Assembly: GCF_003815015.1 (NCBI RefSeq)
Contig: NZ_RKRE01000001.1
Coordinates: 46,460 to 70,459, forward strand
Direction: 5' to 3'
Source: Thermodesulfitimonas autotrophica
Lineage (GTDB): Bacteria; Bacillota; Desulfotomaculia; Desulfotomaculales; Ammonificaceae
DNA length: 24,000 nt
This document shows positions 189-17,324 of the stretch, in pieces (positions within the stretch are counted from its first letter, which is position 1; every line of letters begins with the position of its first letter). The position numbers and the translations under genes were made by a program. A model generated the notes under the pieces. The model did no database searches. It was given only the letters and a program-made list of their open reading frames with translations, and had not been told where the DNA came from.

Positions 189-249
189 GGCTTGAAGGGC
201 GGTTGCCGTTAAAGTGCCGTCAGGGAAAAATCTTACGGGAGGTGCGAGA

Positions 250-777
250 ATGGCGCGTTTTGTGCTGCTGCCGAAGCGGGTGGTAGTCGGTTTCGTGGTC
301 CTTCTTCTCGCCGGGGGCGTGGCCCTTACGGCCTGCGGGGGCTGGACGGCGACCAAGGATGGCGCGCGCCAGGCGGCCGGGAAGGTAACTGTGGTCAGCG
401 CCCCTTACCAGCAGGAGGTGAAGGCACCCCGGGACAGTTTCTTTGTGGACTACAGCCTTGAGCGCGAAATCAACCGCAGCCGTCAGCTCGAGCTTTTACG
501 GGAGATCGCGTCCGGGACGGCTACCGACGAGGCGACGCGGAAGCGGGCGCAGGAGCGCTTGATGGTGCTTAGCGAACGGGCGGAGAAGGAGGCGCGGTTA
601 GAAGGCATCCTGCGGGCGAAGGGGTTTAAGGATGCCGCCGTGGCGATTGGGGAGCAGAGCGTGACGGTGATCGTGCCGGGAAGGGTCCCTCCTGAGGAGA
701 CGACCACCATTGCGGCCCTTGTTTACCACACCGTTGGGGTGCCGCAGGAGCAGGTAGTTATTCTCGGGCACGAGTGA
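250..777 (+). CDS. spoIIIAH: Stage III sporulation protein AH (N-terminal membrane anchor plus YscJ/FliF-like domain)
   Basis: The ORF track begins at 214, but I prefer the ATG at 250 because GGGAGG at 238-243 precedes it. N-terminal hydrophobic segment VVVGFVVLLLAGGVALTA. The body (FFVDYSLEREINRSRQLELLREI...RLEGILRAKGF.DAAV) looks SpoIIIAH-like. Synteny after spoIIIAG supports the call. Confidence 0.75.
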   Translation: MARFVLLPKRVVVGFVVLLLAGGVALTACGGWTATKDGARQAAGKVTVVSAPYQQEVKAPRDSFFVDYSLEREINRSRQLELLREIASGTATDEATRKRAQERLMVLSERAEKEARLEGILRAKGFKDAAVAIGEQSVTVIVPGRVPPEETTTIAALVYHTVGVPQEQVVILGHE

Positions 778-781: not shown

Positions 782-1669
782 TTAACCGAAAATCCGGGCG
801 AAGACGTAATCGGCCTTGAGGCGCGCCATAGCGGTAACCTTTTCGATGTCGGCGCCAAGACATATCGCCAGGAGCTGGGCGTAATGGAGGACGGGGATTT
901 TGAAGTGAATGCGCTGTCTGGTAAGGAGGAACTCCTGGGCCATATCCAGCTGGAGCAAACAGGAGCTGCAGCCGGTGACGATCAGGTGGGGGTTAGCCTC
1001 CTCCTTTATCGAACGCAATTTTCTTTCTACCAGGATTAACGACTTGCTCAAGTCCGTGCTGCGCATCCCGCCCATGCCGCAGCAATCAAGTAACCGGCTG
1101 TAGTAGGGAACGGTAGCTCCTAAGGCTGCGCAGAGTTCTTTGAGGGCCGTAGGGTGGAAGGGGTCTTCTTCCCCTTCTTGGCACATCCTCCTGGGCCAGA
1201 GGGTGAGGCAACCTGGTTGGATGGCGATCCGGAGACCCTGGAGGCAGTTTTGCGTTGCTTCCCGAATCCGCTCCCGCCCAACTTCCCGGAGGAGGAAATA
1301 GACGATGTGCCTTGCCCGGCTAGTTCCTTTGTACTCCTTACCGACCTCCCGGAGCAAGGCATCGACTTTCTGCTGTACTGCGGCGTCGCTCAGGATAACG
1401 TTTCTGGCCCGGGTAAGGCTGCCGTAACACGTGCTGCAGACAGTGACCAGGTCTACCCCCTTCTTTTCTGCCAGCGCGAGGTTTCGGGCGGCCAGGGCGC
1501 ACCAGCCGGCAAGGTCTATTGAAGGCAAGGTGCCCCAGGTAGGGCAGCAGGACTGTCCCTCAATATCCTCCAACGTTACGCCGAGTCGGGGCAGGGCGAA
1601 ACGGACCGCGAGCTCGAGGTCGGGCCGGTTAAAAGCGACGTTACAACCAATAAAAAAACCTATCCGCAT
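782..1669 (-). CDS. hdrB: Heterodisulfide reductase subunit B-like protein, second (distal) paralogue
   Basis: Two CCG-type cysteine motifs are present (GQSCCPTWG...CSTCYGS and QPGC...DCCGMGGMRS...CSSCLLQ). It aligns along its full length with the other HdrB at 6048-6938, roughly 60% identity by eye. The start lies 4 nt after the stop of the upstream hdrC paralogue. Confidence 0.85.
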   Translation of the reverse strand: MRIGFFIGCNVAFNRPDLELAVRFALPRLGVTLEDIEGQSCCPTWGTLPSIDLAGWCALAARNLALAEKKGVDLVTVCSTCYGSLTRARNVILSDAAVQQKVDALLREVGKEYKGTSRARHIVYFLLREVGRERIREATQNCLQGLRIAIQPGCLTLWPRRMCQEGEEDPFHPTALKELCAALGATVPYYSRLLDCCGMGGMRSTDLSKSLILVERKLRSIKEEANPHLIVTGCSSCLLQLDMAQEFLLTRQRIHFKIPVLHYAQLLAICLGADIEKVTAMARLKADYVFARIFG

Positions 1670-1673
1670 CCCA

Positions 1674-2264
1674 TCACCATAACTTTTTATCCGTTATCCC
1701 GTAGAGGCTCTCGCCAGTCGGGCCCATGGGGATGATCCCTAATTTGGCCAGAGCTGTCCGGCGCATGATCGCCTGCACCTCCCCGAGCGCCTTGGAGGAC
1801 GCCAGCGTTGTCGGCGGTTTTTCCGGGAGACCGATTTTTTTTCGGGGCGGCCCGGCTTCGGCAAGATGAACGGCGTGCCCGGTTTCGTAAAGGGAACGGA
1901 GGCCCTCGACGGCCATGGCGGGGAGCGCGTACTCGGATACCGCAAACCGGCGGGCAGCGAGGATGATTCCGAAGGAATCTATCCCCTGGGGACATACCTC
2001 CGTACACCGGTTGCAAGACTGACACGCCCAAATGGAAGCGTCGTTTAAAAGGAGCTCTTTGAAGCCCATCAGGATGGTCTGAATGAGGCGCTTGTTGAAA
2101 AAAGGAAAACCGGTCAGAACCAAAGGGCAGGCGGCGGCACACTTGCCGCACTGGGTGCAAGCAAAGATATCCGCCGCTCCGAGGGTGCGAACCGTATCTG
2201 CCAGACCGGGATCACTCTGGGTGGGGTCGAAGATTGTTGGGTCTGGTTCTTTAAAGAGGAGCAT
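1674..2264 (-). CDS. hdrC: Heterodisulfide reductase subunit C-like protein (2x[4Fe-4S] ferredoxin-type), second paralogue
   Basis: Two CxxCxxCxxxCP clusters (CTQCGKCAAACP, CQSCNRCTEVCP). It is collinear with HdrC at 6942-7517. The ORF extends to 2291, but the ATG at 2264 is preceded by GGGAGGAA at good spacing, so 2264 is preferred and 2291 remains possible. Confidence 0.8.
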   Translation of the reverse strand: MLLFKEPDPTIFDPTQSDPGLADTVRTLGAADIFACTQCGKCAAACPLVLTGFPFFNKRLIQTILMGFKELLLNDASIWACQSCNRCTEVCPQGIDSFGIILAARRFAVSEYALPAMAVEGLRSLYETGHAVHLAEAGPPRKKIGLPEKPPTTLASSKALGEVQAIMRRTALAKLGIIPMGPTGESLYGITDKKLW

Positions 2265-2456
2265 CCCCGTTTCCTCCCGTAAAGGAGCCATTCTTCGCCT
2301 TGATAATCTGTTAATTCAACATCTTTTAAGCGATTCCTCTTTTAGTTACCTATGCTTTGTCGCGTTACTTCTAACAGTTTACCGTCAACCCTGCGGGGGA
2401 ACGCTTACCAGCGAAGAGTCTTGGGTTTGGGTGCGGATATGGGACGGGATAGTTGT

Positions 2457-2918
2457 TTACGCTTGCGGCTCCTTTCCCGCAGGAAAAAGATGCTTCTTTA
2501 TCCGGCTTACCGCTTCCGGAACGGCCGCTGCCACCTCTGGCGTACACTCCCGGCCAAAAGAGGTTGCGTCCGCAACCTCAACCGTCACAATTTTGATTTC
2601 GCGGGGCATCTCTGGACCGAATAGTTCGTAGCCGATCTTTAAAGTGGTGGGCAAGGAGAGATTGTGGGTGCCGGAGAAGGTGTAGGTATAAAAAAGGTCG
2701 TCCGGGGTGAATTCGCGCACCGTTCCCGGCGCATCCCCCAGCCTGACGCCGTCAACGATGATTGCCCGGTCGTAGCCGAGCAGCTTGTCAAGAACCTTAA
2801 AGTCGGTGGTCATCAAAATCTCGGTGTCCACCACGCCTTCGAAATGACGGGCAACCTTAATCCCGACGGCGTCGTCGGTTAAAACCGGGTTGCCGATACC
2901 GAGCACGATGGTGCGCAA
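2457..2918 (-). CDS. [NiFe]-hydrogenase maturation endopeptidase (HyaD/HycI/FrhD family)
   Basis: N-terminus MRTIVLGIGNPVLTDDAVGIKVA and ...DRAIIVDGV... are typical of hydrogenase C-terminal processing proteases. TTG start with GGGGTGA 7 nt upstream. It lies downstream of the large-subunit gene. Confidence 0.85.
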   Translation of the reverse strand: MRTIVLGIGNPVLTDDAVGIKVARHFEGVVDTEILMTTDFKVLDKLLGYDRAIIVDGVRLGDAPGTVREFTPDDLFYTYTFSGTHNLSLPTTLKIGYELFGPEMPREIKIVTVEVADATSFGRECTPEVAAAVPEAVSRIKKHLFPAGKEPQA

Positions 2919-2934
2919 TCATCTCACCCCTGAG

Positions 2935-2956
2935 GAACGTTTGACGTTAAACGTTC
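2935..2956 (-). repeat. Three tandem heptads with an ACGTT core, also foldable as an 8-bp hairpin, just 5' of the protease RBS
   Basis: Plus strand reads GAACGTT TGACGTT AAACGTT. GAACGTTT (2935-2942) is the reverse complement of AAACGTTC (2949-2956). In the gene sense it reads AACGTTT AACGTCA AACGTTC followed by ctcaGGGGTGAgatgaTTG. Confidence 0.6.
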
Positions 2957-3034
2957 AAAGTTTTAGCAGCCGCTAATCTCGAATCAGCGGGGCGTCTCCG
3001 GCACGAAAGGCATTGCGGGCAGCACCAGAAGCGC

Positions 3035-3108
3035 CCCCGCACTCAGGCGAAATCTACGTGCCCCAAATGGCGGTTAGGTTTCATTAGGCACTCCGCCCGA
3101 GTGCGGGG
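3035..3108 (-). other. Mutually exclusive helices within the mvhA-protease spacer
   Basis: CCCCGCACTC (3035-3044) is the exact reverse complement of GAGTGCGGGG (3099-3108). GCACTC (3088-3093) competes for the same GAGTGC (3099-3104) across a 5-nt loop. Confidence 0.5.
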
Positions 3109-3190
3109 CTACGCTCTTTCCGGCTTCAGCGGGCAACGTTACCATTTTAAACCTGCCGTTAGTATGGGCAAACGTTTACACCGCTGTTTC

Positions 3191-4654
3191 TTAAAAATTC
3201 CGCAAGGTTTTGTAAAGTTCGCCCTTATGGTCGTAAATATCTACCTGAACCGGCAGCCGGCCCGGCAGAACGTGGGTGGCGCAGGCCAGGCAGATATCGT
3301 AGGGTCGGTAGGCGATCTCCACGAGATTCAAAATGCCCTCGTCCACTTTCCCGTTCCGGATAAAGTGGGCGGCGGCGCGTCTAACCGCAACGTTGATGGG
3401 GCCTTTGTTGTGGGTGGTGGCCACAATCAGGTTGGCCTCCTGGACGATGCCCTTATCATCGGTCTTATAGTGGTGGATTAAAGTGCCGCGGCAGGCTTCG
3501 ATGATACCTACGCCTTCGCTTGGCTTGCCGAGCTCGGCCCGGACGTCGGGGCTGGTGATGCTCTCGTCCGCGGCTATTTGTTGCACCTTCTCAGCCGCGT
3601 TGAGCAGCTCGATGGCCCGGGCCCAGTGGTAGGCCAGGATGTTATGCACGGGTTTTACGCCGAAGGTTGCGAACATCCGCTCGTAGGCCTCCTGGGCGAG
3701 CGGCGTATCCATTCCCTCCGCGACGTTAAGCCGCGCGAGCGGCCCGACGCAGTAGAGGCTTGTACCCGGGCCGTCGACGATGCCCTTCCAGCCGATCGGT
3801 TTCAAATACGGCATCTTAAGGTAGCTCCAGGGAAGCACCCTTTCGGCAATGAAGTCGAGGTAACCCTTGCCGGTGAAACGGCCGATCTCCCTGCCTTCGG
3901 TATCGACGATCCGCTGGATACCGTCGTAATACTGAACCCGGTTTTTCTCGTCCACCGTTCCCATATAGTTGACTACAACCTTGTAAACGTCGCCGGTGAC
4001 TAACTTCATGTAGTTTTCGTTTTTGAGCACCACGTCTTCGAAGACCTTGAGGGTGAGCTGGCCCAGTTCAACCATTTCTTTGGCGAGGGCGAGGATCTCT
4101 TTTCGTTCTTCTTCCGTCACCCGCTTCGACCAGCCGCCCGGCAGTGCGGCTACCGGATGGATGGGTTTCCCGGCCAGCATCTCGATTACCTTGACCGCGG
4201 CGTAACGCTTCTTGAGCACCAACTTGCCGGTTTCGGCGCCAACGGCCTGGATAAGACCGATGAGGTTCCGCTCGGCCGGGCTGGCGGTGGGACCGGCCAC
4301 GAAATCCGGGAAACCGAGGGCGTAGAGAATTGCGGCGTGGTCCTCCACGTAGTGGGAATTGAGCACTAACTCCCGGATCTTCCGCGCGGTCGGCGTCGGC
4401 TCTACCTGGTAGACCGCGTCCGCCGCCTTTACCGACGCGGTGAAGTGGACGCAGCGGCAGACGCCGCAGATGGTAGAAACGGTCCGCGGCACCTCTTCGA
4501 TGGGCATGCCGCGGAGGAACTGCTCGTAGCCGCGGAGCTCGACCGTCTGGAAGAAGGCGTTATCTACATTCCCCTGCTCGTCGAGAAAAACGGTAATCTT
4601 GCCGTGGCCTTCGAGCCGGGTCATCGGGTTGATTTCGATCTTCGTGACCGACAT
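3191..4654 (-). CDS. mvhA: Cytoplasmic [NiFe]-hydrogenase large subunit, MvhA/VhuA-like (group 3c type)
   Basis: N-terminal RLEGHGKI and the ICGVCRCVH Ni-ligand CxxC motif. C-terminal DICLACATH motif followed by a 26-aa extension, the expected protease substrate. RBS GGGGTGA upstream. Located in an mvhD-mvhG-mvhA arrangement. Confidence 0.9.
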   Translation of the reverse strand: MSVTKIEINPMTRLEGHGKITVFLDEQGNVDNAFFQTVELRGYEQFLRGMPIEEVPRTVSTICGVCRCVHFTASVKAADAVYQVEPTPTARKIRELVLNSHYVEDHAAILYALGFPDFVAGPTASPAERNLIGLIQAVGAETGKLVLKKRYAAVKVIEMLAGKPIHPVAALPGGWSKRVTEEERKEILALAKEMVELGQLTLKVFEDVVLKNENYMKLVTGDVYKVVVNYMGTVDEKNRVQYYDGIQRIVDTEGREIGRFTGKGYLDFIAERVLPWSYLKMPYLKPIGWKGIVDGPGTSLYCVGPLARLNVAEGMDTPLAQEAYERMFATFGVKPVHNILAYHWARAIELLNAAEKVQQIAADESITSPDVRAELGKPSEGVGIIEACRGTLIHHYKTDDKGIVQEANLIVATTHNKGPINVAVRRAAAHFIRNGKVDEGILNLVEIAYRPYDICLACATHVLPGRLPVQVDIYDHKGELYKTLRNF

Positions 4655-4670
4655 TGGTATTCACCCCTAT

Positions 4671-5636
4671 CTATTTCACTTTTTGGCCCAGCAAGGAGGC
4701 GGGCAAAGAGTAACGGTAAAAAAGCTTGACCGGGCTGGGGATCTGATCAACCAGCGCTTCGTCCGCGAGGAGCCCGGCGATGGCGCTCACGGCCCGCAAA
4801 CCGAAGTCCTTGACGCCGGGGATGGGCCCGCCGCAGCCCCGACACGGAATGTTGACCTTCGGGCACAGCGCACCGCAGTCGCCCTGGGTTACCGGTCCCA
4901 GGCAGAGGTAGCCCTGCTGCAGGAGGCACTTGCCTTCTCCCGGAACGCCGTCGATGGTCCGCTTGATTTCCTTAATCGGCTGCCTTTCTTCGCCTCTGGC
5001 AGCCGGATTGCGGTCGCATACGTCACAGACGGCCTTACCGCTCGTAATCCAAGAGCCGGGCGGTGGCAGCTTGCCTTGAAGAATGGCCAGGATGGCCTGG
5101 CCGACGAAAGAGTGGTGGGGCGGGCAGCCGCCGACAAAGTAATCGACGGGCACGACGTCCTGAAGGGTCCGCACGTGACCGTAGAACTCGGGTAGGGTGA
5201 GTTCGTACTTGCCGTCCACCACGCACCTTGTCTGGGGGGTGATGCCCTCCGGGTTATCGGTGCTGTAAGTGTCGAAGTAGGCGGTCCGGAAGATTTCTTC
5301 TTTCGTGTGCATGTTACCCATGCCCGGGATGCCGCCGAGCGCGGCGCAGGCGCCGTAGGCAACCAGGACCTTGCACTTCTGGCGCATCACTTTGGCGATG
5401 TGCTCCTGCTCGCCGAGGCGGACCATACCGGAGTAAAGCCCGACGTCGATTGATTTGTCCGGCATCGCCTCGAGGTCTTTGTACTTCACGTCGGCAACGG
5501 TGGGAGCCCAGAAGACTACTTCGAGCTGGGGCAGCACGTCTACCAACGTTTCCGACAGGTCTACGATGGCCATATCGCAGCCGCCACACCCGCCGGAGAG
5601 GAAATAGGCTAAGCTAAGCTTACCGGCCATCTCCAT
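4671..5636 (-). CDS. mvhG: [NiFe]-hydrogenase small subunit, MvhG/VhuG-like (no Tat signal)
   Basis: N-terminus ...YFLSGGCGGCDMAIVD is the proximal-cluster motif. Cys-rich C-terminal part (CDVCDRNP..., CLGPVTQGDCGALCP..., CRGCGGP). No twin-arginine leader. Overlaps mvhD by 17 nt. Confidence 0.85.
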   Translation of the reverse strand: MEMAGKLSLAYFLSGGCGGCDMAIVDLSETLVDVLPQLEVVFWAPTVADVKYKDLEAMPDKSIDVGLYSGMVRLGEQEHIAKVMRQKCKVLVAYGACAALGGIPGMGNMHTKEEIFRTAYFDTYSTDNPEGITPQTRCVVDGKYELTLPEFYGHVRTLQDVVPVDYFVGGCPPHHSFVGQAILAILQGKLPPPGSWITSGKAVCDVCDRNPAARGEERQPIKEIKRTIDGVPGEGKCLLQQGYLCLGPVTQGDCGALCPKVNIPCRGCGGPIPGVKDFGLRAVSAIAGLLADEALVDQIPSPVKLFYRYSLPASLLGQKVK

Positions 5637-6051
5637 CCCTCCCGAGGGGATTCGGGCCGAGTTCCCGAATCTTTTTATCGAATTCCGTCATTACTTCGGC
5701 GAAGCGCTTTCCTTCGGAGCCGGAGATCCACTCCAACCGCACCCTTTCGGGTTCAATGCCCATTTCGGTGAGCATCCGTTTGAGGAGGTTGAAGCGACGG
5801 ATGGCCTTGTAATTACCCTCCTTATAATGGCAGTCGCCGAAATGGCAGCCGCCCACAAAGACACCGTCGGCCCCCTTTTTGAGCGCCGTTACGATGAACT
5901 CGGGCTCTATCCGTCCGGAACAAGGGACCCTCACGATCTTGATGGTGGGCGGATAGGAATAGCGCAGGCTGCCTGCGAGGTCCGCCCCCTGGTAGGTACA
6001 CCAGTTGCAGGCAAAGACCACGATGTTGGGCGTCCAATCACCCATCTTCAT
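5620..6051 (-). CDS. mvhD: Methyl-viologen-reducing hydrogenase delta subunit (MvhD/FlpD family, [2Fe-2S] adaptor to HdrA)
   Basis: IVVFACNWCTYQGADLAG...VRVPCSGRIEPEFIVTALKKGADGVFVGGCHFGDCHY is the hallmark MvhD pattern. A 4-nt ATGA-type overlap with hdrB suggests translational coupling. Confidence 0.9.
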   Translation of the reverse strand: MKMGDWTPNIVVFACNWCTYQGADLAGSLRYSYPPTIKIVRVPCSGRIEPEFIVTALKKGADGVFVGGCHFGDCHYKEGNYKAIRRFNLLKRMLTEMGIEPERVRLEWISGSEGKRFAEVMTEFDKKIRELGPNPLGRDGDGR

Positions 6052-6938
6052 CCCTCCAGGATTTTATTTACGACCGACTGCACATTTGTTTTGCCGAGGC
6101 TCGCAACCTGCCCCGGTTCCGCCCCGAGGCAGAGGGCTAAAAGCTGCATGTAGTGTAGAACTGGTATCTCATAGTTAATCTTTCGGTCTTTTTGCAGGAA
6201 CCCTTGAGCCGTATCCAGCTGGATCAGGCAGGAACTACAGGCGGTGACGATCAGGTCCGGGTTGATCTCTTCCTTCATGGAGTTAAGTTTTTTCTCCACC
6301 AGCTTGAATGACTTCTCCATGTCGGTGCTGCGCATCCCGCCCATGCCGCAACAGTCGAGGAGCCGGCTGTAGTACGGCGCTTTGGCTCCGAGGGCTTCAC
6401 AGAGCTCGATTAAGACCTTAGGGTGGAACGTATCCTCTTCTTTGTCCTCGTAAACCTCACTCGGCCAGAGCGCGTGGCATCCCGGCTGGACCGCGATGGT
6501 TATGCCGTCGAGCTTGTGCCGGACGGCTTCCTTAATCTTCTCCGGGCCGAGCTCTTTGTACAGGTAACAGATCGCGTGTCTTATCCGGCTGGTTCCTTTG
6601 AATTCCCTCCCGATGCTTTTGAGCATCGCGTTGACCCGGGCCTTCAGCTCCGGATCGGATAGAAGCTTGTGGCGGCTTTCGGCCAGGCTGCCGTAACAGC
6701 TGCCGCAAACCGTGATCATGTCGAGGTTTTTTTCTTCTGCGAGCGCGTAATTTCTGGCGCCGACGGCGCACCAGCCGGCAAGGTCGATAGAAGGCATCGT
6801 CCCCCAGGTCGGGCAGCAGGACTGCCCTTCAAGGTCGTCGAGCTCCACGCCGAGCGCCGGGAAGGCGTAGCGCACCGCCTTTTCGAGATCGGGCCGGTTA
6901 AAGGCTGTATTGCAGCCGACAAAAAATCCTACACGCAT
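6048..6938 (-). CDS. hdrB: Heterodisulfide reductase subunit B (proximal copy)
   Basis: Two CCG domains (GQSCCPTWG...CGSCYGS; QPGC...DCCGMGGMRS...CSSCLIQ). Lies directly after hdrC in an hdrA-hdrC-hdrB order. Confidence 0.9.
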   Translation of the reverse strand: MRVGFFVGCNTAFNRPDLEKAVRYAFPALGVELDDLEGQSCCPTWGTMPSIDLAGWCAVGARNYALAEEKNLDMITVCGSCYGSLAESRHKLLSDPELKARVNAMLKSIGREFKGTSRIRHAICYLYKELGPEKIKEAVRHKLDGITIAVQPGCHALWPSEVYEDKEEDTFHPKVLIELCEALGAKAPYYSRLLDCCGMGGMRSTDMEKSFKLVEKKLNSMKEEINPDLIVTACSSCLIQLDTAQGFLQKDRKINYEIPVLHYMQLLALCLGAEPGQVASLGKTNVQSVVNKILEG

Positions 6939-6941
6939 AGG

Positions 6942-7517
6942 CTACACCTCGCAACTTTCTTTTACTCCGGACTTGCCCATGGGGATGATGCCCAGGTCAG
7001 ATAGAGCGGTCTGCTCGAGTAACGCCTGTAACTCGCGTAAAGCTGTTGGATGCGCAACCGTTGACGGGGGCTTTTGCGGCAGGCCGACCTTTACCCGGTT
7101 CTCGTGCGCCTGCGCGAGATAGACCGCGTGGCCGACATCGTAAAGCGACTTTATTCCTTCAATGGCCAGGGTGGGGAGGGCGAATTCGCGGACGGCTACG
7201 CGGCGCATGGCCTGCATTACCTCGAAGGGATTTACCTTCCGGGGACAGACCTCGGTACAACGGTTACAGGACTGGCAGGCCCAGATGGAGGTATCGTCGA
7301 GAAGCATCTCCTTCAAACCAAGCAGGATGGCCTGGATCACTCGCTTGTTAAAAAACGGGAAACCGGCAAGGGCCATCGGACAGGCGGCGGCGCACTTGGC
7401 ACATTGGATGCAATCAAGGATATGGGTGGCTCCGAGCGCCTTGATTTCGTCGACGAAGCCTTTTTCGCCTGCGGAAAGATTAATGACTTCCGGTACGGCT
7501 TCCGCAGCGTTAGACAT
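6942..7517 (-). CDS. hdrC: Heterodisulfide reductase subunit C (proximal copy)
   Basis: Two ferredoxin-type motifs CIQCAKCAAACP and CQSCNRCTEVCP. An 8-nt overlap with hdrA. Confidence 0.9.
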   Translation of the reverse strand: MSNAAEAVPEVINLSAGEKGFVDEIKALGATHILDCIQCAKCAAACPMALAGFPFFNKRVIQAILLGLKEMLLDDTSIWACQSCNRCTEVCPRKVNPFEVMQAMRRVAVREFALPTLAIEGIKSLYDVGHAVYLAQAHENRVKVGLPQKPPSTVAHPTALRELQALLEQTALSDLGIIPMGKSGVKESCEV

Positions 7518-9540
7518 TCAGATCACCCCCGCTGAAAGTTAGGGCCTCAATTTGGGCTTCGATCTGCGCCGTGGTGAAACCGTGTAGCGTGATCGCCCGA
7601 GAGGGGCAAGCCGCCGCACAAACGCCGCAGCCGGCGCAGAGGGCTGGGTCAATCTTGGCCCGCAGCTTATCACCGTGTTGCACCATGCCGATGGCCGAAT
7701 AGGGGCAGAGCGGGACGCAGAGACCGCAGCCACTGCACTTTTCGGCGTCGATTTCGGAGATAAGCGGTTCAACAAGCACCTTTCCTGCGGTGAGCGGTAC
7801 CGCGGCCGCCGCGGCTGCCGCGCGCGCCTGCGAGACCGATTCGGGGATGTCTTTAGGGCCCTGCGCGCACCCGGCGATGTAGATGCCCTTTACCGGAGTT
7901 TCCACCGGGTAGAGCTTGGTGTGGACTTCTTTCAAGAAGCCTTCGCTGCCGCAGGTGATTCCGAGCCGGCGGCCAAGTTCCTCAAGCCCCGGCGACGGTT
8001 CGATGGCGGTGGCGAGAACCACCAGGTCCGCCTCGAGTTCTACGGGCGCGGCCATATCGACGTCGTAGGCGCGCACGCGTAATCTGTCACCGGCGAGTTC
8101 GTCCACAGCACCCACGCGGCCCCGCACAATCTTAATCCCCAGGTCACGGCAGTAAGTGTAGTATTCTTCAAAGTCTTTGCCGCCGGTCCGCACGTCGATG
8201 AAGAAGATGTAGACGTTCGTTTCCGGGTATTTCTCTTTGATGAGCCGGGCCTCTTTCAGCATGTACATACAGCAGACCTTAGAGCAGTACGGATGGTGGT
8301 TCTTATCCCGGCTGCCGACGCAGGAGATAAAGGCCACCGTCTTGGGCTTTTTCCCGTCTGAGGGGCGCTTGAATTCGCCTTCGGTTGGTCCGGTCGCCGA
8401 AAGGAGACGCTCGAGTTGCATGGCGGTGAGCACGTTAGGCGACTGGGGGGAGTATTCTTTGAAAGGAGCCTTGTCCATGACTTTGTAGCCGGTGGCGACG
8501 ATGATCGTGCCTACGTTAAGCTCAATGATCTCCCCGTCGGGGTTATATGATAGCGAGCGGTCGCAGGCGCCCGTGGGGCAGGCCTTCTCACACGGTGCGA
8601 GGATGGGCTCTCCGGTCTTAGAATGGATGCGCGGTTGGGTACCGAAGGTCCGCTTCGCGCAGTTGAGGCAGTGGGCGATGTCGACGACCGCCTTCTTGGG
8701 CACCGCCTGCGGGAACTCGATGTAGATCGCCTTCCGGTTGCTCATGCCCTCGTTGAACTCGTCGGGCACTTTGGCCGGGCAGGCTTCGACGCAGGCACCG
8801 CAGCCGGTGCATTTATCCCATTCAATGTAGGTCTGCCTTCTTCTTACCTTAACCCTGAAATTACCGATGGAACCGTCAACCGCTTCGACTTCCGAGTAGG
8901 TGAGCAGCGTGATATTCGGGTGCGTGCCCACCTGAACCATGACGGGGGTAAGGATGCAGGCGGAGCAGTCGTTGGTCGGAAAGGTTTTGTCAAGCTTGGC
9001 CATGTTGCCGCCGATGGAGGGCTTTTTCTCCACGAGGTAAACCTTGTAGCCCATATTGGCCAAGTCAAGGGCGGCAAACATGCCGGCCACTCCCCCGCCG
9101 ACGACGAGAGCCGCCTTCGTCACGTCCACGTAACGGTCGGTGAGCGGCTCCAAAAGGGCGGCCTTCGCTACGGCGCTGGCAATGAGCTTTTTGGCCTTCT
9201 CCGTAGCGCCCTGCTTATCGTGCCAGTGGGCCCAGCTGTCCTGATCCCGGATATTGGCCATTTCGAAGAGGTACCGGTTAAGTCCGGCGTCTTCGACGGC
9301 CTTGCGGAAAATCGGCTCGTGGGTGCGGGGAGTGCAGGCGGCTACCACGACCCGGTCGACAAGGCCGTCTTTGATATCCTGCTTGATTAGGTCCTGACCC
9401 GGGTCGGAGCACATGAAAAGATAGTCGCGCACGAGCGCAACCCCTGGAAGGCCACCGGCATACTTCTTGACTTCGGCGATGTCAACAGCACCGGCGATGT
9501 TTTCGCCGCAGTGGCAGATGTAAACGCCTATTTTCGACAA
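7510..9540 (-). CDS. hdrA: Heterodisulfide reductase subunit A (FAD plus multiple [4Fe-4S]; electron-bifurcating flavoprotein)
   Basis: 676 aa. Dinucleotide fold ALVVGGGVAGMFAALDLANMGYKVYLVEK. Inserted ferredoxin domain CTGCGACVEACP and C-terminal CSGCGLCVPLCP and CAGCGVCAAACP. N-terminal Cys-containing domain (VYICHCG). TTG start with AAGGAGGG 6 nt upstream. Confidence 0.9.
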   Translation of the reverse strand: MSKIGVYICHCGENIAGAVDIAEVKKYAGGLPGVALVRDYLFMCSDPGQDLIKQDIKDGLVDRVVVAACTPRTHEPIFRKAVEDAGLNRYLFEMANIRDQDSWAHWHDKQGATEKAKKLIASAVAKAALLEPLTDRYVDVTKAALVVGGGVAGMFAALDLANMGYKVYLVEKKPSIGGNMAKLDKTFPTNDCSACILTPVMVQVGTHPNITLLTYSEVEAVDGSIGNFRVKVRRRQTYIEWDKCTGCGACVEACPAKVPDEFNEGMSNRKAIYIEFPQAVPKKAVVDIAHCLNCAKRTFGTQPRIHSKTGEPILAPCEKACPTGACDRSLSYNPDGEIIELNVGTIIVATGYKVMDKAPFKEYSPQSPNVLTAMQLERLLSATGPTEGEFKRPSDGKKPKTVAFISCVGSRDKNHHPYCSKVCCMYMLKEARLIKEKYPETNVYIFFIDVRTGGKDFEEYYTYCRDLGIKIVRGRVGAVDELAGDRLRVRAYDVDMAAPVELEADLVVLATAIEPSPGLEELGRRLGITCGSEGFLKEVHTKLYPVETPVKGIYIAGCAQGPKDIPESVSQARAAAAAAAVPLTAGKVLVEPLISEIDAEKCSGCGLCVPLCPYSAIGMVQHGDKLRAKIDPALCAGCGVCAAACPSRAITLHGFTTAQIEAQIEALTFSGGDLNV

Positions 9541-9991
9541 CCCGATCCCTCCTTCGAGTTAACGGTTCTATGCCTCGACTCGTTCTTCCTATCTCCTCTT
9601 GGTGTCCTGAGCGCTATTTACCGATCGAGATAAATGCCCGGACCAGCCCCCTTTCGCCAGTATGTACGCGCAGGACCGCCGCCCTTGTAGAAACGGAGTA
9701 ACGCCGCCTGCGAACCCGGTTGGTAAGGATACGGAAATTCAGGCGGACGCACCTTGCCCCGATTACGTGCGCCTGCGAAAATTTCGACAGCGATCAGACA
9801 AAATCCTTCTTTTTTACTAAAAAAATGACATCCACTCGCGGCAAAAATCCTCTTAGCGAAGGCGCAGGAGGTTACGGCGCCTCTCAGGGCTGCTGCGCGA
9901 GCTCGTTGGTAAAGCGCCCGGCCGGATGCGGCGGCTGCGGGAGGCCGAAACGCTTGCCGAAACGTTTATTGTATACTTGAGCTGCCACTGT

Positions 9992-10020
9992 TTCCAACGC
10001 TCCGCCCTTTGCATTATAAT
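9992..10020 (+). promoter_or_regulatory. Candidate sigma-A-type promoter for the carboxylase operon
   Basis: Perfect TATAAT at 10015-10020. Weak -35 TTCCAA at 9992-9997 with a 17-nt spacer. About 60 nt upstream of the preferred start at 10079. Confidence 0.4.
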
Positions 10021-10078
10021 TATCACCAGGTTTTAAGCGCCCTTTATTTTGCGTTTTTGTTTGGGATGGGGGGATACG

Positions 10079-11917
10079 ATGCGTCCGGTGCGGATTACGG
10101 ACACGACCTTGCGGGACGGGCACCAGAGCCTGTGGGCGACCCGGATGCGGACGGAGGATATGCTGCCGATTGTGGAGCGACTCGACCGGGTCGGTTACCA
10201 CTCGCTCGAGGTGTGGGGCGGGGCGACCTTTGATGTCTGTCTCCGCTATCTTTACGAGGATCCGTGGGAGCGGTTACGGGAGATTAAAAAACGCGCTAAG
10301 CGCACACCGCTGCAGATGCTCTTGCGGGGTCAGTCGCTTGTCGGTTACGGTCACTACCCGGACGATGTGGCGGCGGCCTTCGTCCGGAAAGCGGTGGAAA
10401 ACGGGATCGACATCATCAGGATCTTCGATGCTTTAAACGATATCCGGAACCTTGAGTTTACGATGAAGGTGGCGAAAAAGGCCGGCGCGCACGTTCAGGC
10501 TACGGTTGTTTACACCTTGAGCCCGGTGCACACCACTGAACATTACTTAGAGACGGCGCGGAAGCTTGCGGAGTTGGGTGCGGATTCGATCTGCATCAAG
10601 GATATGGCCGGGATGATGGCGCCCTACCGGGCTTACGAATTAGTTAGTCTTTTTAAGAAGGAGCTTGCCATCCCGGTCCAGCTCCACTGCCACTATATCG
10701 GCGGCATGGCCGTTGGCGCTTACCTGAAGGCGGCGGAGGCGGGTGTCGACGTGATCGATACGGCCTCAGTGCCACTGGCTTTTGGGGCTTCGCAGCCGCC
10801 GGTAGAGACGATAGTCCGGGCGCTCAAAGGCACGCCTTACGATACGGGGCTCGACATCAAGGAACTCTTCGAAATCGCGCAGTACTTTGAGGATTTGCGC
10901 AAAAAGCGGGGCTTTGAGCGGGGGGTAACGCGCATCCACGACATGCGGGTTTTCGATCACCAGGTACCGGGCGGCATGATCTCCAACCTGGTGACCCAGC
11001 TCCAAGAGCAGAAGGCGATCCACAGACTGCAGGAGGTTCTCGAAGAGATCCCGCGGGTGCGGGCGGAGCTTGGCTACCCACCGTTAGTTACGCCTACGAG
11101 CCAGATCGTCGGCACGCAGGCGGTGCTGAACGTCCTCACCGGGGAGCGCTACAAGCTTGTTCCCGAGGAGGTGCGGCGCTATGTCCAGGGATATTACGGC
11201 CGGCCCCCGGCGCCCATCGACCCCGAGGTACAAAAGAGGATCCTCGGCGACCGGGAGCCGATTACCTGCCGGCCGGCCGATTTGCTGGAACCGAAACTGG
11301 AAAAACTAAGGGAAGAGATCGGGGATTTGGCACAATCGGAAGAGGACGTTATTTCGTACGCGCTTTTCCCCCAGGTGGCGCGGCGCTTCTTCGAGGCGCG
11401 CAAGGCGGGGAAACTCGGGGTCATGGCCGAACAGATGTCGGAGAAGAAAGGGGCAAATCCCGTGAAGGAGGCAAAAGGAATGAAGTTGGAGGAGATTCGG
11501 GAACTCCTGAAGCTCCTGAAAGAAAGCGACGTGACGGAGTTTTCGCTCGAAAGCGCGGGGATGAAGCTCACCATTCGCAAGGGCAGCCATCCGAGTAGCG
11601 CTGGGGAGGCGCCAGCGCGGCCGGAGGCGCCGCCACCGGTTGCGGCAGCACCTCCGGCGGCGCCGCAAGAAGAGCTTTACACGGTTAAGGCGCCGATGGT
11701 CGGGACTTTTTACCGGGCGCCGGCGCCGGATGCGCCGCCTTACGTGCAGGTGGGTGACAGGGTGGAAAAGGGACAGGTTCTCTGCATCATTGAAGCGATG
11801 AAGCTGATGAACGAGATCGAGGCGGAGGTTGCCGGTGAGATCGTCGACATCCTGGTGGAGAATGCCCAGCCGGTGGAGTACGGGCAGCCCCTCTTCTTGA
11901 TCCGGGAGAAAAAGTAA
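10079..11917 (+). CDS. pycB: Pyruvate carboxylase subunit B / oxaloacetate decarboxylase alpha-type carboxyltransferase joined in frame to a complete AccB-like biotin carboxyl carrier protein
   Basis: N-terminus [19 protein letters not shown]...EVWGGATFD is the 5S/PycB/OadA carboxyltransferase signature. The C-terminal 146 aa look like full-length AccB: [21 protein letters not shown], a Pro/Ala linker, then [10 protein letters not shown]...[11 protein letters not shown]. The ORF track starts at TTG 10049; I prefer ATG 10079 because GGGGGGA precedes it. Confidence 0.85.
11480..11917 (+). other. accB: Embedded AccB-like BCCP module with its own Shine-Dalgarno and ATG (possible internal translation start)
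   Basis: GAAGGAGG at 11464-11471, then 8 nt, then an in-frame ATG at 11480. From that Met the product resembles a complete AccB: N-terminal helical domain, P/A-rich linker, and biotinyl domain with the [11 protein letters not shown] biotinylation motif. Confidence 0.5.
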
Positions 11918-11938: not shown

Positions 11939-13303
11939 ATGTTCAATAAGATTCTGATTGCCAACCGGGGTGAGATTGCGCTCCGGATCATCCGGGCCTG
12001 CAAGGAACTTGGCATCAAAACGGTGGTTGTTTACTCGGAGGCGGACAGGGAGAGCCTACCGGTGCGGTTAGCGGACGAGGCCTTCTGCATCGGGCCGCCG
12101 CCGGCGACAAAGAGCTACCTCAATATCGCCAACATCGTCAGCGTTGCCGAGGTTGCGGGGGCCGAGGCGATACATCCGGGATATGGTTTTTTAGCGGAGA
12201 ACGCCAGTTTTGCGGAAATCTGCCTTAATTGCGGGATAACCTTTATCGGGCCGCCCGTCGTGGCGCTCGAGAAGATGGGGGCCAAGGCGGTAGCCCGGAA
12301 AACGGTGGCGGAGGCCGGCGTTCCGGTAGTGCCGGGGTCGGAAGGGGTGATTCGGGATCCGGCAGACGCGCTCGCCCTCGCCAGGGAGATCGGCTATCCG
12401 GTGCTTATCAAGGCTTCGGCCGGCGGGGGCGGCCGCGGGATGCGGGTCGTGCATAACCAGGCGGAGCTCGAAAGGGCGCTGAAGTCGGCGCAAGCAGAGG
12501 CGGAAGCCGCTTTCGGGAACCAGGAGGTTTACCTGGAAAAATATGTCGAGGAGCCGCGCCACATCGAGTTTCAGGTTTTAGGTGACCAACAAGGGAACAT
12601 CGTCTATTTGGGCGAGCGGGACTGCTCCATCCAGCGGCGCAACCAGAAACTTCTGGAAGAAGCGCCTTCCGTAGCGCTGACGCCGGCTCTGCGCAAGAAA
12701 ATGGGGGAGGCCGCGGTGCGGGCAGCGCGGGCCGTGGGTTACTATAGCGCCGGGACGGTCGAGTTTCTGCTCGACAAGCATAACAATTTTTATTTCATCG
12801 AGATGAATACGCGGATTCAGGTCGAACACCCGGTCACCGAGATGGTCACCGGGCGGGACCTGGTTAAGGAGCAGATCCGGATTGCGGCGGGTGAACCCTT
12901 GGGTTACCGGCAGGCGGACATCCGGATCGAGGGCTGGGCGATCGAGTGCCGGATCAACGCGGAGGATCCGGCGCGGAACTTTGCGCCCTGTCCCGGGAGG
13001 GTCGCTACCTACCTGCCGCCGGGCGGGCCGGGCGTGCGGGTCGATTCCGCCGTCTATCCCGGCTACGTGATCCCGCCTTACTACGATTCACTTATTGCCA
13101 AGCTGATCGCCTGGGGCCGGAACCGCGAAGAGGCGATCGCGCGGATGGAGCGCGCCCTCGAGGAGTTCGTCATCGAGGGAGTGCCTACGACGATCCCCTT
13201 TCACCGGCGGGTGTTACAAAACGCCTTTTTCCGCCGGGGCGAGGTTTATACCAACTTTGTCCAGCGTCGCATTTTGACGGATGAAGAATTAAAGTTGCCT
13301 TAG
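11939..13303 (+). CDS. accC: Biotin carboxylase (AccC / pyruvate carboxylase subunit A)
   Basis: [26 protein letters not shown]..., ATP-grasp motifs ([32 protein letters not shown]). RBS GGAGGAG upstream. Confidence 0.92.
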
Positions 13304-13349
13304 AGGGAAAAATTTAGTATGATAAAAGTAACCTAAGGAGGTGGTCGCT

Positions 13350-13751
13350 TTGACGGCCGTTGAAACTGGCGGGCAGGAGTTACGTAGCGACCTGGGGGCG
13401 GTAAGGATCGCAAACGAAGTGGTAGGTATCATTGCGGGTCTTGCGGCGACGGAGGTTCCGGGGATTGCCGGGATGAGCGGTGGTATCGCGGGCGGCATCG
13501 CGGAGCTCTTGGGGCGCAAGAATCTCGCCAAGGGCGTGAAGGTAGAAGTTGGGGAGCGGGAGGCCGCTATTGACCTTTTCGTGGTCGTCGACTACGGGGT
13601 GCGGATCGCGGAAGTGGCTGCCCAGGTTCAGGCGGCGGTGAAGCGCGCGGTTGAGGAGATGACCGGGCTTGCTGTCGTAGAGGTAAACGTACATGTTCAG
13701 GGCGTGGTTTTCCCCGAGGAGCATAAGGAAGAGGAACGCAGGGTGAGATAA
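13350..13751 (+). CDS. Asp23/Gls24-family envelope stress protein (YqhY-like)
   Basis: GAVRIANEVVGIIAGLAATEVPGIAGM...VEVGEREAAIDLFVVVDYGVRIAEVAAQVQAAVKRAVEEMTGL is the typical Asp23 pattern. AAGGAGGTG overlaps the track start at 13341, so the TTG at 13350 is preferred. Confidence 0.8.
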   Translation: MTAVETGGQELRSDLGAVRIANEVVGIIAGLAATEVPGIAGMSGGIAGGIAELLGRKNLAKGVKVEVGEREAAIDLFVVVDYGVRIAEVAAQVQAAVKRAVEEMTGLAVVEVNVHVQGVVFPEEHKEEERRVR

Positions 13752-13908: not shown

Positions 13909-14445
13909 TTGGGACCGTTTGATCGCGGTCTCTTATTGCTTTATAGCTTGGCCACCAGTGTTTTTTGGGGCGCCTTTCTCCTCGCCCTTCTAGGATGGCG
14001 GCCGGTGCTTGACGCCACGGCGGCAGTCTTTGCGCCGGAGCGGCGGGAGATAGTCTTCGCCGGGCTTGCTGTCCTGATCGTTGCGGGGCTCCGGCTGATT
14101 TACGCCAGCGTGAAACCCGGGCGCCGGCACGACAAGGTGGCCCTCATCGAGGAAAACTCCATCGGCCAGGTGCAGGTAGCCTTAGGGGCGATCGAAAACC
14201 TGGTAACGCGTGTGGTGAGTGCTTTTCCGGGAATAAGGGAAGTGCGGCCGCGGGTCGTCACGGTGCCCGAGGGAGTTGTAATCCAAGTCAGGCTGGTTAC
14301 CACCCCGGGGCTTAAAATCCCCGAGGTTTCCCAGGAGATTCAGCGACAGGTCAAGGAGACGGTCCGGGAAGTCACCGGAATTGCGGTGCAGAACGTCCGC
14401 GTTCTCGTCGACAACATCACGGCTGTCAAACCGCGGGTCGAGTAA
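13909..14445 (+). CDS. amaP: Alkaline-shock-response membrane anchor protein AmaP-like
   Basis: Two N-terminal hydrophobic helices followed by an Asp23-like soluble domain (IGQVQVALGAIENLVTRVV...VTGIAVQNVRVLVDNI). Position after asp23 matches the asp23-amaP-DUF2273 module. TTG start with GGAGTGG upstream. Confidence 0.65.
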   Translation: MGPFDRGLLLLYSLATSVFWGAFLLALLGWRPVLDATAAVFAPERREIVFAGLAVLIVAGLRLIYASVKPGRRHDKVALIEENSIGQVQVALGAIENLVTRVVSAFPGIREVRPRVVTVPEGVVIQVRLVTTPGLKIPEVSQEIQRQVKETVREVTGIAVQNVRVLVDNITAVKPRVE

Positions 14446-14680: not shown

Positions 14681-15103
14681 ATGGGCCGGCGCAGGGCAAG
14701 GGAAGCGGCCTTTATGGTTCTTTTTGAGGTTGACTTCGGGCAGGCTGAGGTAGAAGCCGTTTTTGCCCGGGCGATGGCGGAGCGGGGAGTGGAGGGCCCC
14801 GACCGGGATTTTGCCCGCGACATGGTTTGGGGAACGTTGCGGTACCGGGAGCGGATCGACGCTATCATTAAGGAGCTGAGCCGCGACTGGCGCATCGAAC
14901 GGATGAATAGCGTGGACCGGAACGTGATGCGGCTGGCGCTTTACGAGCTGCTTTACCGGGAGGATATCCCCCCCAACGTGGCCATCAACGAGGCGGTAGA
15001 ATTAGTTAAACGCTACGGCGGCGCCGACTCGCCGCGCTTTGTTAACGGGATTTTAGGCAAGGTGGCGGAAAATCTTGCTGCGTACAGAGCGGCGGGGGGT
15101 TAG
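14681..15103 (+). CDS. nusB: Transcription antitermination factor NusB
   Basis: RRRAREAAFMVLFEVDF..., ...DRNVMRLALYELLYREDIPPNVAINEAVELVKRYGGADSPRFVNGILG is the canonical NusB pattern. Confidence 0.92.
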   Translation: MGRRRAREAAFMVLFEVDFGQAEVEAVFARAMAERGVEGPDRDFARDMVWGTLRYRERIDAIIKELSRDWRIERMNSVDRNVMRLALYELLYREDIPPNVAINEAVELVKRYGGADSPRFVNGILGKVAENLAAYRAAGG

Positions 15104-16445: not shown

Positions 16446-16471
16446 CCCCCTAAAAGGTAAAAGGGGGTTTT
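16446..16471 (+). terminator. Weak hairpin plus T-run after xseA (possible leaky terminator overlapping the folD RBS)
   Basis: CCCCCT (16446-16451) pairs with AGGGGG (16462-16467) across a 10-nt loop, followed by TTTT. The stem is short and its 3' arm doubles as the folD SD. Confidence 0.3.
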
Positions 16472-17324
16472 GGCCGTGGCGGTAATCCTCGACGGCAAGG
16501 CGCTTGCGGCCCAGATCAAAGAAGAGATTAAGGCCGCGGTGGCCGGGTATGCGTCCCGCGGGATAACGCCGAAGCTCACCGCAGTTCTGGTCGGCGACGA
16601 TCCGGGCTCGGTTGTTTACGCGCGGGCGAAAGAAAAGGCCTGTGCCGGGGTCGGGATCGCCTACGAGCTCCACCATCTTCCGGGCGATACGCCGGAGGCT
16701 GCGGTTATAGAACTGATCGGGCGGCTTAACGAAGATCCGGGCGTGCACGGTATCCTGGTAGAGTTTCCCCTCCCGAAACAGGTGAACAAGTGGCGGGTTC
16801 TCGATGCCCTGGCGCCGCTCAAAGATGTCGACGGGATGACGGCGGTTAACCGCGGCCGTCTCTTGGCGGGAGAAGAGGGGCTCTTCCCGGCGACGCCCCA
16901 GAGCTGCATCGAGATTATGGAGCGCTACGGGATTGAGATTGCCGGTAAGCACGCCGTACTGGTGGGGCGCGGGGAAACGGTGGGCCGGCCGCTGATGCTG
17001 ATGATGCTTCGCAAGAACGCCACCATTACGGTCTGCCATACGAAAACGGTGGATATGGCGGCCCATACCCGCCAGGCGGAGATTCTCATCGCCGCCGCCG
17101 GCCGGGCCGGGCTTATCAAGGCGGAGATGGTCAAGCCGGGAGCGGTAGTGGTCGATGCGGGGATTAACCAGACGGACAAGGGAATCTGTGGCGACGTCGA
17201 CTTTGAGGATGTGAAAGAGGTCGCGGGATACATCACGCCGGTACCGGGCGGCGTCGGGAGTCTGACCACCACACTGATCATGAAGAATCTCCTGAAGGCG
17301 ATGGCCCTGCAAGGGGTTGTGTAG
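16470..17324 (+). CDS. folD: Bifunctional methylene-THF dehydrogenase / methenyl-THF cyclohydrolase
   Basis: ILDGKALAAQIKEEI..., PKLTAVLVGDDPGSVVYARAKEKAC, GILVEFPLP, VLVGRGETVGRPL, ITPVPGGVGSLTT are FolD hallmarks. The start is TTG 16470 or GTG 16476, and GTG has the better SD spacing. Confidence 0.9.
   Translation: MAVAVILDGKALAAQIKEEIKAAVAGYASRGITPKLTAVLVGDDPGSVVYARAKEKACAGVGIAYELHHLPGDTPEAAVIELIGRLNEDPGVHGILVEFPLPKQVNKWRVLDALAPLKDVDGMTAVNRGRLLAGEEGLFPATPQSCIEIMERYGIEIAGKHAVLVGRGETVGRPLMLMMLRKNATITVCHTKTVDMAAHTRQAEILIAAAGRAGLIKAEMVKPGAVVVDAGINQTDKGICGDVDFEDVKEVAGYITPVPGGVGSLTTTLIMKNLLKAMALQGVV

Follow-up and report, generated by a model that had tools for sequence, protein, structure and literature searches.

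A second, variant HdrCB pair in an Hdr-Mvh hydrogenase operon of Thermodesulfitimonas autotrophica

Organization of the locus

The present analysis concerns an operon for a heterodisulfide reductase (Hdr) and an Mvh-type [NiFe]-hydrogenase in Thermodesulfitimonas autotrophica, a member of the Bacillota, carried on a stretch of 24,000 nucleotides (nt) that is referred to here as the window (contig NZ_RKRE01000001.1, positions 46,460 to 70,459). On its minus strand, between positions 782 and 9540, lie nine co-oriented open reading frames (ORFs) in the order hdrA-hdrC-hdrB-mvhD-mvhG-mvhA-protease-hdrC'-hdrB', that is, one hdrA and one set of hydrogenase genes together with two HdrCB pairs, designated proximal (type-1) and distal (type-2). 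Neighbouring genes overlap by 8, 4 and 17 nt or are separated by 3, 16 and 4 nt, and there are two longer spacers, one on either side of the protease gene. Gene families were assigned by Pfam and NCBIfam profile matches to the translations of the window ORFs, and these agree with an earlier note on the same DNA, which had given this gene order, the coordinates and spacers of 272 and 165 nt.

The first gene, hdrA (7510-9540), has a TTG start and encodes 676 amino acids (aa) with matches to Pyr_redox_2/FAD_oxidored and Fer4. Its product is the sole HdrA of the cluster and the presumed site of electron bifurcation; the best NCBIfam model is HdrA2 (827 bits against a cut-off of 1100), and identity is 72-86% to the HdrA of the full-length relatives among L004-L023 (related loci are given L numbers throughout) and 98% to that of L027. 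It is followed by hdrC (6942-7517), for a two-[4Fe-4S] ferredoxin-like subunit of 191 aa (Fer4_8/Fer4_17), hdrB (6048-6938), with two CCG domains (PF02754, E 3.6e-30), and mvhD (5620-6051), specifying the 143-aa [2Fe-2S] connector between hydrogenase and HdrA (PF02662, FlpD, E 1.4e-56). The hydrogenase small and large subunits are encoded by mvhG (4671-5636, 321 aa, PF01058) and mvhA (3191-4654, 487 aa, PF00374), and the best models for MvhD, MvhG and MvhA are VhuD (130 bits), VhuG (232 bits) and VhuA (376 bits). A HycI/HybD-type maturation endopeptidase of 153 aa is specified from a TTG start at 2457-2918 (PF01750; TIGR00072, 92 bits, above the cut-off of 47), and the distal pair consists of hdrC' (1674-2264, Fer4_8/Fer4_17) and hdrB' (782-1669), again with two CCG domains (PF02754, E 2.3e-26). 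The ATG at 2264 appears to be the likelier start of HdrC', being preceded by a ribosome-binding site (GGGAGG) and yielding 196 aa, the length called in three relatives; a start at 2291 would give 205 aa. MvhA and the proximal HdrB are identical to RPF49250.1 and RPF49253.1, both of T. autotrophica, and no discussion of the hdr/mvh genes of this species was found in the papers searched.

The hydrogenase belongs to group 3c (Mvh-type) of the cytoplasmic [NiFe]-hydrogenases by its MvhA motifs, the presence of MvhD, the lack of an RR leader and its linkage to HdrABC. MvhA carries the motifs ICGVCRCVH and YDICLACATH, to be compared with the L1 and L2 definitions ICGxCxxxH and DPCxxCxxH-type (PMC6085437), the proline of the second being replaced by isoleucine, and it has a 26-aa C-terminal extension that is predicted to be removed by the protease on maturation. 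The N-terminus of MvhG was read directly (MEMAGKLSLAYFLSGGCGGC) and has no twin-arginine leader, which bears out the claim of the earlier note that the enzyme is cytoplasmic; the note was equally correct that a polyferredoxin gene (mvhB) is missing, none being present in the whole 24-kb window. The gene set required for a bifurcating Mvh-Hdr complex, MvhADG plus HdrABC (Poudel et al., PMC6085437), is all present. All Hdr and Mvh subunits score under the NCBIfam equivalog cut-offs for the methanogen enzymes, HdrB and HdrB' with 258 and 225 bits for TIGR03288 (cut-off 345), HdrC and HdrC' with 104 and 96 bits for TIGR03290 (cut-off 160), and the window proteins are therefore members of the Hdr family, not demonstrated subunits of a reductase of CoM-S-S-CoB, the heterodisulfide of coenzyme M (CoM) and coenzyme B (CoB).

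The two pairs share 61% (HdrB/HdrB') and 57% (HdrC/HdrC') identity, in line with the figure of about 60% estimated earlier, and the cluster motifs that had been noted as intact in both are indeed complete. PF02754 matches twice in each HdrB copy, each CCG domain contributing five cysteine ligands to a non-cubane [4Fe-4S] cluster, and all ten cysteines (C9, 41, 42, 78, 81, 154, 196, 197, 234 and 237) are kept in both, the N-terminal motif being CCP as in the solved methanogen HdrB. Both copies align over their full length to solved methanogen HdrB (E 1e-49 to 1e-63, 5odc_B included); in the alignment to 8rvv_B, HdrB is matched over residues 1-273 (E 8.6e-63) and HdrB' over residues 1-278 (E 5.8e-55). 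HdrC aligns to the solved HdrC proteins 8rvu_c and 5odc_C, and two CxxCxxCxxxCP motifs, with all eight cysteines, can be read in HdrC and in HdrC'. The HdrC' proteins of the Thermodesulfitimonas clade have extra changes right behind the second cluster motif, where PFE has become SFG.

The earlier note had also drawn attention to short patches of identical DNA in the two hdrB genes. These exist, slightly displaced from the positions it gave: a 26-nt patch at 1056-1081 and 6325-6350, which encodes the invariant peptide CGMGGMRS, and a 20-nt patch at 1497-1516 and 6766-6785, which encodes the invariant DLAGWCA. They carry no special signal. Many unrelated genomes contain the 26-mer, with zero to two mismatches, in their HdrB genes, and since it recurs so widely and both patches encode invariant peptides, they are best seen as the product of motif and codon conservation. 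Codons are identical at only 51% of the identical residues between the copies, a codon-column permutation gave p values of about 0.003-0.009 for the patches in a test that ignores the clustering of conserved residues, and the shorter patch (as a 20/21-mer) is closer only within the species of the window, L027 and L024. Gene conversion is not supported by patches that coincide with invariant peptide motifs; the second patch may have arisen by chance or by conversion over a very short tract.

A promoter-like site, TTGGAA-18-TACAAT, at 9968-9997 (minus strand) within the 508-nt divergent intergenic region between hdrA and pycB, is a candidate promoter of the operon, by its match to the consensus only. 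The spacer between mvhA and the protease gene (2919-3190, 272 nt) contains a long predicted hairpin (-110 kcal/mol, z = -3.5, with no shuffled sequence folding as well), which is kept with few substitutions in L024 and L027 and is absent in L025, and which might act as an attenuator or processing site or represent a repeat element; a promoter scan placed a weak promoter-like site within the same spacer at 3171-3144. In related clusters this spacer measures about 20 nt in several cases and about 220 nt in others. The spacer between the protease gene and hdrC' (2265-2456) is 192 nt long to the ATG at 2264, or 165 nt (2292-2456) to the first ATG. It shows no significant structure (z = 0.04), its alignment reveals conservation among near-identical strains only, and its counterpart in L025 does not exceed about 65 nt, or 27 nt if measured between the genes as called. 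No Rfam match was found in either spacer, and a riboswitch or other known RNA was discarded on that ground, the 272-nt fold being conserved among close relatives only. The consensus scan found no terminator-like site on the coding strand from mvhA to hdrB', and taken together the promoter and terminator scans identified neither element decisively inside the operon.

A separate lineage of HdrCB pairs

The two HdrB copies differ at columns invariant among proximal-type HdrB but different in the distal clade, the signature substitutions from type-1 to type-2 being S80T, E87R and H155L, so that the proximal protein reads S80/E87/H155 and the distal one T80/R87/L155. Among 198 close homologs position 155 is histidine in 177 and leucine in 21, and every one of these 21 L155 proteins has threonine at 80 and R, K or M at 87. 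In 150 representatives of the wider family the corresponding counts are 122 His and six Leu, from a library of 50%-identity representatives in which type-1 and type-2 are merged and which therefore gives no measure of the size of the type-2 family. The L155 proteins are monophyletic even with the signature columns masked (54% bootstrap, 113 sequences). The type-2 sublineage, a grouping defined here and not a published family, is recognised by HdrB with T80, R/K87 and L155 together with membership of this clade, and HdrB' qualifies on both counts.

Residue 155 comes directly after Cys154, with which the ligands of the C-terminal non-cubane cluster begin, and in the alignment to 8rvv_B it corresponds to H154 of the methanogen protein, residue 87 corresponding to E87. 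A proton path to the thiol of CoM, running through E87, HdrC Y81, water and H154, has been proposed from PDB 5ODR and the structure of the Methanococcus maripaludis complex (PMC13518236, 2026, Extended Data Fig. 6 legend). Of its HdrB residues the proximal HdrB has both (E87, H155) and the distal HdrB' neither (R87, L155).

Relatives were collected by a scan of GTDB species genomes, which gave 23 loci, and trees were built by neighbour-joining, with 300 bootstraps for the monophyly of the window pairs. HdrC' forms a clade with the proteins of L026 and L002 (99% bootstrap), HdrB' with those of L026, L002 and L001 (75%), and the proximal HdrC groups with the proximal HdrC of other clusters; the proximal and distal pairs of the window were never monophyletic (0/300 bootstraps). 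The MvhA of L026 is sister to the window clade (58%). The gene on the far side of hdrB', spoIIIAH (214-777, plus strand, PF12685), is convergent with it across a gap of 4 nt and adjoins all of the closest distal-pair relatives (L001, L002 and L024-L027); it does not adjoin the proximal-only clusters. Together, tree topology and this anchoring indicate that the distal pair is a separate, locus-anchored lineage. A recent tandem duplication of the proximal pair was rejected on the same evidence, the distal pair grouping with spoIIIAH-linked pairs elsewhere. The check proposed in the earlier note, to ask by phylogeny whether the distal pair is a duplicate or a separate lineage, thus comes out for the latter: its 'second, diverged' pair is a real second pair, and what falls is the notion of a simply diverged copy of the proximal one.

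The other side of the operon has a comparable synteny anchor in pycB (10049-11917, plus strand; NCBIfam pyruvate carboxylase subunit B, 914 bits) and the biotin carboxylase gene after it (11939-13303, plus strand). In L002 an hdrC-hdrB pair lies alone between pycB-accC and spoIIIAH, exactly the flanks of the window. L026 has the order hdrA-mvhD-mvhG-mvhA-protease-hdrC-hdrB-spoIIIAH with no proximal pair, its hdrA overlapping mvhD (L026 2058-2065), and the two pairs occur together in the window, in L027 and in L025+L028. To judge from the sequences, either a cassette joined a resident distal pair and L026 then lost the type-1 pair, or the type-1 pair was inserted later. Elsewhere, the type-2 pair is the sole HdrCB of the cluster, in the distal position in L026 and in the standard position of an hdrA-C-B-mvhD-G-A cluster, at other genomic sites, in L014, L015 and L032; it is the second pair in the window lineage; and it occurs as an orphan in L002, L010 and L029-L031, the metagenome-assembled genome (MAG) of L010 carrying a full type-1 cluster on another contig (L004). 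That type-2 serves as sole HdrCB in L026, L014, L015 and L032 implies that type-2 modules do work with an HdrA-Mvh core.

Viewed more widely, the HdrCB module is found in all possible arrangements among the related clusters. The orphan type-2 hdrCB of L029-L031, which represent two or three metagenomic Bacillota, is transcribed divergently from the secE-nusG-rplKAJL ribosomal-protein operon (at about 9400-10900 in L029 and in L031), a conserved location that would not have been expected of a redox module. In L011-L013, L016, L017, L022 and L023, hdrACB-mvhD precedes additional HdrA-like and MvhD genes, and there is no hydrogenase.

The nine-gene arrangement is conserved. In L027, a Logan assembly, the full order lies on one contig followed by the spoIIIA operon, with subunits 93-99% identical at the aa level, and L024, a fragment of the same species (MvhA 99.8% identical), carries mvhA-protease-hdrC'-hdrB'-spoIIIAH. 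Two contigs from one sequencing run, at 78-93% aa identity to the window, carry hdrA-C-B-mvhD-mvhG' (L028) and 'mvhG-mvhA-protease-hdrC'-hdrB'-spoIIIAH (L025); since they abut at MvhG residue 122/123, the nine-gene order is very likely present in that lineage too. The linkage of the distal pair is retained in a lineage with saturated synonymous sites (dS >1.5 relative to the window). Ratios of non-synonymous to synonymous substitution (dN/dS, by Nei-Gojobori) for HdrC' and HdrB' are 0.075 and 0.094 against L027 (core genes 0.02-0.065), 0.071 and 0.107 against L024 (MvhA 0.012), and 0.089 and 0.059 against L025 (MvhG 0.025, MvhA 0.036). These values are indicative of strong purifying selection on a functional pair. 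Pseudogenisation is excluded by the dN/dS values and the complete set of cysteines, and the decay in relatives that the earlier note had named as a possible refutation is not seen (dN/dS 0.06-0.11).

In comparisons with L027 and L024 there is also a step in dS, from 0.14-0.27 in the six upstream genes to 0.32-0.41 in protease-hdrC'-hdrB' and 0.35 in spoIIIAH, the step falling at the mvhA/protease boundary. The GC content of third codon positions is higher in the upstream block, mvhG, mvhA and hdrA among them. This may result from stronger codon constraint linked to higher expression, or from recent replacement of the upstream block by recombination.

Two proposed catalytic heads on one core

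In methanogens, complexes of the MvhADG-HdrABC type perform flavin-based electron bifurcation. By homology, electrons from H2 would pass from the [NiFe] site of MvhA through the Fe-S chain of MvhG and MvhD to the flavin adenine dinucleotide of HdrA, where the pair would be split. One electron would reach ferredoxin via HdrA's own ferredoxin domains, as there is no MvhB, and the other would travel down the HdrC-HdrB branch to a high-potential acceptor with, in the Bacillota, a probable link to DsrC or sulfite reduction. The interpretation that we favour, with our confidence evenly balanced, is that the two HdrCB pairs of the window would be alternative catalytic modules on one HdrA-hydrogenase core, differing in active-site chemistry. 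Judging from the sequences, both modules most likely dock on the same HdrA site, for which type-1 and type-2 heads would then compete, giving two isoenzymes or mixed dimers. The heads probably differ in proton and charge environment, hence in acceptor; they could act on different S-S substrates, or on the same substrate with different proton chemistry. Bifurcation, co-expression of the two modules and a difference in substrate are what we infer for this operon. T. autotrophica is a cultured organism described as growing lithoautotrophically on H2 or formate with sulfite, and in a sulfite reducer the obvious candidates for the acceptor are DsrC-linked sulfur species. A role of DsrC for bacterial Hdr has been proposed (PMC4759654), and noncubane-cluster chemistry and the DsrC trisulfide have been reviewed (PMC10861901). 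The suggestion of one HdrA and hydrogenase module with two HdrCB modules was already made in the earlier note, and is strengthened here by the selection on the distal pair, the conserved arrangement, the use of type-2 as sole pair elsewhere and the active-site difference, while falling short of proof.

Several observations weigh against this interpretation. Both window copies of HdrC have asparagine in place of Y81 of the proposed proton path, and the wider family varies at position 87, so that the argument from the path transfers only partly; transfer of the whole methanogen path was rejected for these reasons, and the contrast at His155 is the only robust part. The path is, moreover, a structural proposal made for a different substrate, and would apply here by analogy. 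Type-2 pairs without hdrA or mvh within about 3.6-10 kb (L002, L010, L029-L031) indicate that linkage to HdrA is not required and that a different partner is possible. The 165-192-nt spacer before hdrC' could hold a promoter of its own, both dN and dS of protease-hdrC'-hdrB' exceed those of the six upstream genes, and the trees are neighbour-joining trees with moderate support at some nodes.

A rival explanation, which we regard as doubtful yet serious, is historical adjacency. The type-2 pair would have been resident at the spoIIIAH/pycB site, serving some other partner (HdrA-like, Qmo-like or Flx-like), and the complete hdrACB-mvhDGA-protease cassette would have landed upstream of it, in which case HdrA would not be common to the two pairs. 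L002, with nothing but hdrCB between pycB-accC and spoIIIAH, looks like such a site, L010 and L029-L031 have orphan type-2 pairs as well, and proximal-only clusters are found at other genomic sites. The separate spacer of hdrC' and a dS in protease-hdrC'-hdrB' that resembles spoIIIAH and not the upstream six also fit, and there is precedent for an HdrCB with a partner other than HdrA in Dred_0633-4, beside sat-aprBA-qmoAB of Desulfotomaculum (PMC4759654). The four clusters in which type-2 is the sole HdrCB beside hdrA and mvh argue the other way, as do the retention of the linkage at dS >1.5, the lack of a terminator-like site ahead of the pair and the short spacer in L025.

A bolder version of the two-module interpretation is that type-2 HdrB'C' would be a distinct S-S reductase module for a different intermediate of sulfite respiration, giving one H2-driven core with two switchable acceptors. 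With a conserved proton-donating histidine lost and an arginine gained near the clusters, its substrate would probably be anionic or protein-bound, such as the DsrC trisulfide as opposed to the disulfide, or of thiosulfonate type. As it stands we think this unlikely; if true, it would offer a handle for identifying the long-sought substrate or substrates of bacterial HdrABC-MvhADG.

It could further be speculated that HdrBC and HdrB'C' sit on the two HdrA protomers of an (MvhAGD-HdrA)2 dimer and carry out different half-reactions, as an obligate asymmetric complex similar to the sHdr system, and this we consider very unlikely. The B1 and B2 pairs of sHdr are probably much more divergent from each other than the window pairs, which are about 60% identical and both near canonical HdrBC. 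In its favour, one hdrA with two hdrCB pairs per cluster is the sHdr pattern (PMC6335251), two HdrBC sites are available in the dimeric methanogen complex (PMC13518236), and the Thermodesulfitimonas lineage has conserved the two pairs jointly. Most relatives, however, function with a single pair of either type, so that the core has no need of an obligate hetero-assembly; nor does the window contain lbpA, dsrE, tusA or the 'hyp' gene. Finally, a redundant or decaying spare copy of no distinct role would be compatible with protein evolution about 1.5 to 4 times faster in the distal than in the proximal pair and with the absence of a second pair from most related clusters, but is largely refuted by dN/dS of 0.06-0.11, frames intact with all cluster cysteines in four independent sequences, signature substitutions fixed across the sublineage and linkage kept across saturated synonymous divergence, and we find it barely credible.

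Modularity on the electron-input side of Hdr complexes is known from methanogens, and if the two heads of the favoured interpretation differ in substrate it would extend to the acceptor side. The same core with two catalytic heads would amount to a built-in comparison for biochemistry.

Other genes and comparison with known systems

The remaining genes of the window lie beyond the biotin carboxylase gene on the plus strand. A pair of neighbouring Asp23-family genes (13341-13751 and 13909-14445) precedes nusB (14681-15103), an arrangement that looks like ordinary housekeeping. Between xseA (15160-16374) and a polyprenyl synthase gene (19027-19917) there is a row consisting of folD (16470-17324), which fits a Wood-Ljungdahl autotroph, a gene for a formiminotransferase-cyclodeaminase C-domain protein (17336-17974) and one for a DUF4416 protein (18182-18715). 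A full-length ornate large extremophilic (OLE) RNA occupies 20053-20650 (plus strand; Rfam RF01071, 524 bits, E 4e-151), flanked by the polyprenyl synthase gene and a 205-aa ORF (20678-21295), after which comes dxs (21273-23165). The 205-aa ORF has no Pfam or NCBIfam match and may encode a putative OLE-associated protein.

Already known are Mvh-Hdr clusters in bacteria, genomes with several hdr loci, orphan hdrCB pairs, the HdrB1C1/B2C2 paralogues of methanogens and the double pairs of sHdr. No description was found of a single Hdr-Mvh operon with a canonical and a variant HdrCB pair, of an HdrB sublineage that has lost the histidine adjacent to the cluster ligand together with E87R/K, or of type-2 placed as first, last, only or unlinked module in thermophilic Bacillota.

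The methanogen MvhADG-HdrABC complex (5ODC/5ODR, 8RVU/8RVV, 9SFI) has the same six subunits, HdrA, HdrB, HdrC, MvhA, MvhD and MvhG, and shares the ten-cysteine HdrB for two non-cubane clusters, the two HdrC 4Fe-4S motifs and a cytoplasmic hydrogenase. The window differs in having one operon, a second HdrCB pair, no mvhB and scores below the cut-offs, in the asparagine at HdrC Y81 in both copies, and in an HdrB' without equivalents of H154 and E87; to our knowledge, the bacterial host makes neither CoM nor CoB. Closer at hand are the hdrACB-mvhDGA-protease clusters of Desulfotomaculia-like Bacillota, which are common (Desulfofundulus, Desulfotomaculum copahuensis, an Ammonifex MAG, Desulfotruncus) and have the first seven genes in the same order, with subunits 56-88% identical and S80/E87/H155 in HdrB. 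They stop after the protease gene and are not beside spoIIIAH or pycB, whereas the window adds the type-2 hdrC'B'.

The sHdr system works in the oxidative direction. Its clusters (hdrC1B1A-hyp-hdrC2B2, in Acidithiobacillus, Hyphomicrobium and Sulfolobales) resemble the window in combining one HdrA with two HdrCB pairs in a sulfur-metabolising host (PMC6335251). The window differs in gene order, has a hydrogenase and methanogen-like pairs, and lacks hyp, lbpA, dsrE and tusA, so that membership of sHdr is ruled out by gene order and neighbours. The orphan hdrCB of Gram-positive sulfate reducers, such as Dred_0633-4 by sat-aprBA-qmoAB, is likewise a movable module without an adjacent hdrA (PMC4759654). 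The distal pair of the window has no sat, apr or qmo neighbour, and follows instead the hydrogenase protease gene of an Hdr-Mvh cluster.

A last comparison is with the HdrBC paralogues of methanogens, which are not known to be linked to hdrA or mvh and which have CoM-S-S-CoB as their common substrate. Extra HdrBC copies were noted in PMC6085437, and a complex containing HdrB2/C2 has been solved (9sfi; PMC13518236). Methanococcus maripaludis, with HdrB1C1 and HdrB2C2, and Methanosarcina, with HdrA2B2C2, are like T. autotrophica in having two HdrBC pairs per organism; in the window, both pairs lie in one operon and differ at residues that align with those of the proposed proton path.

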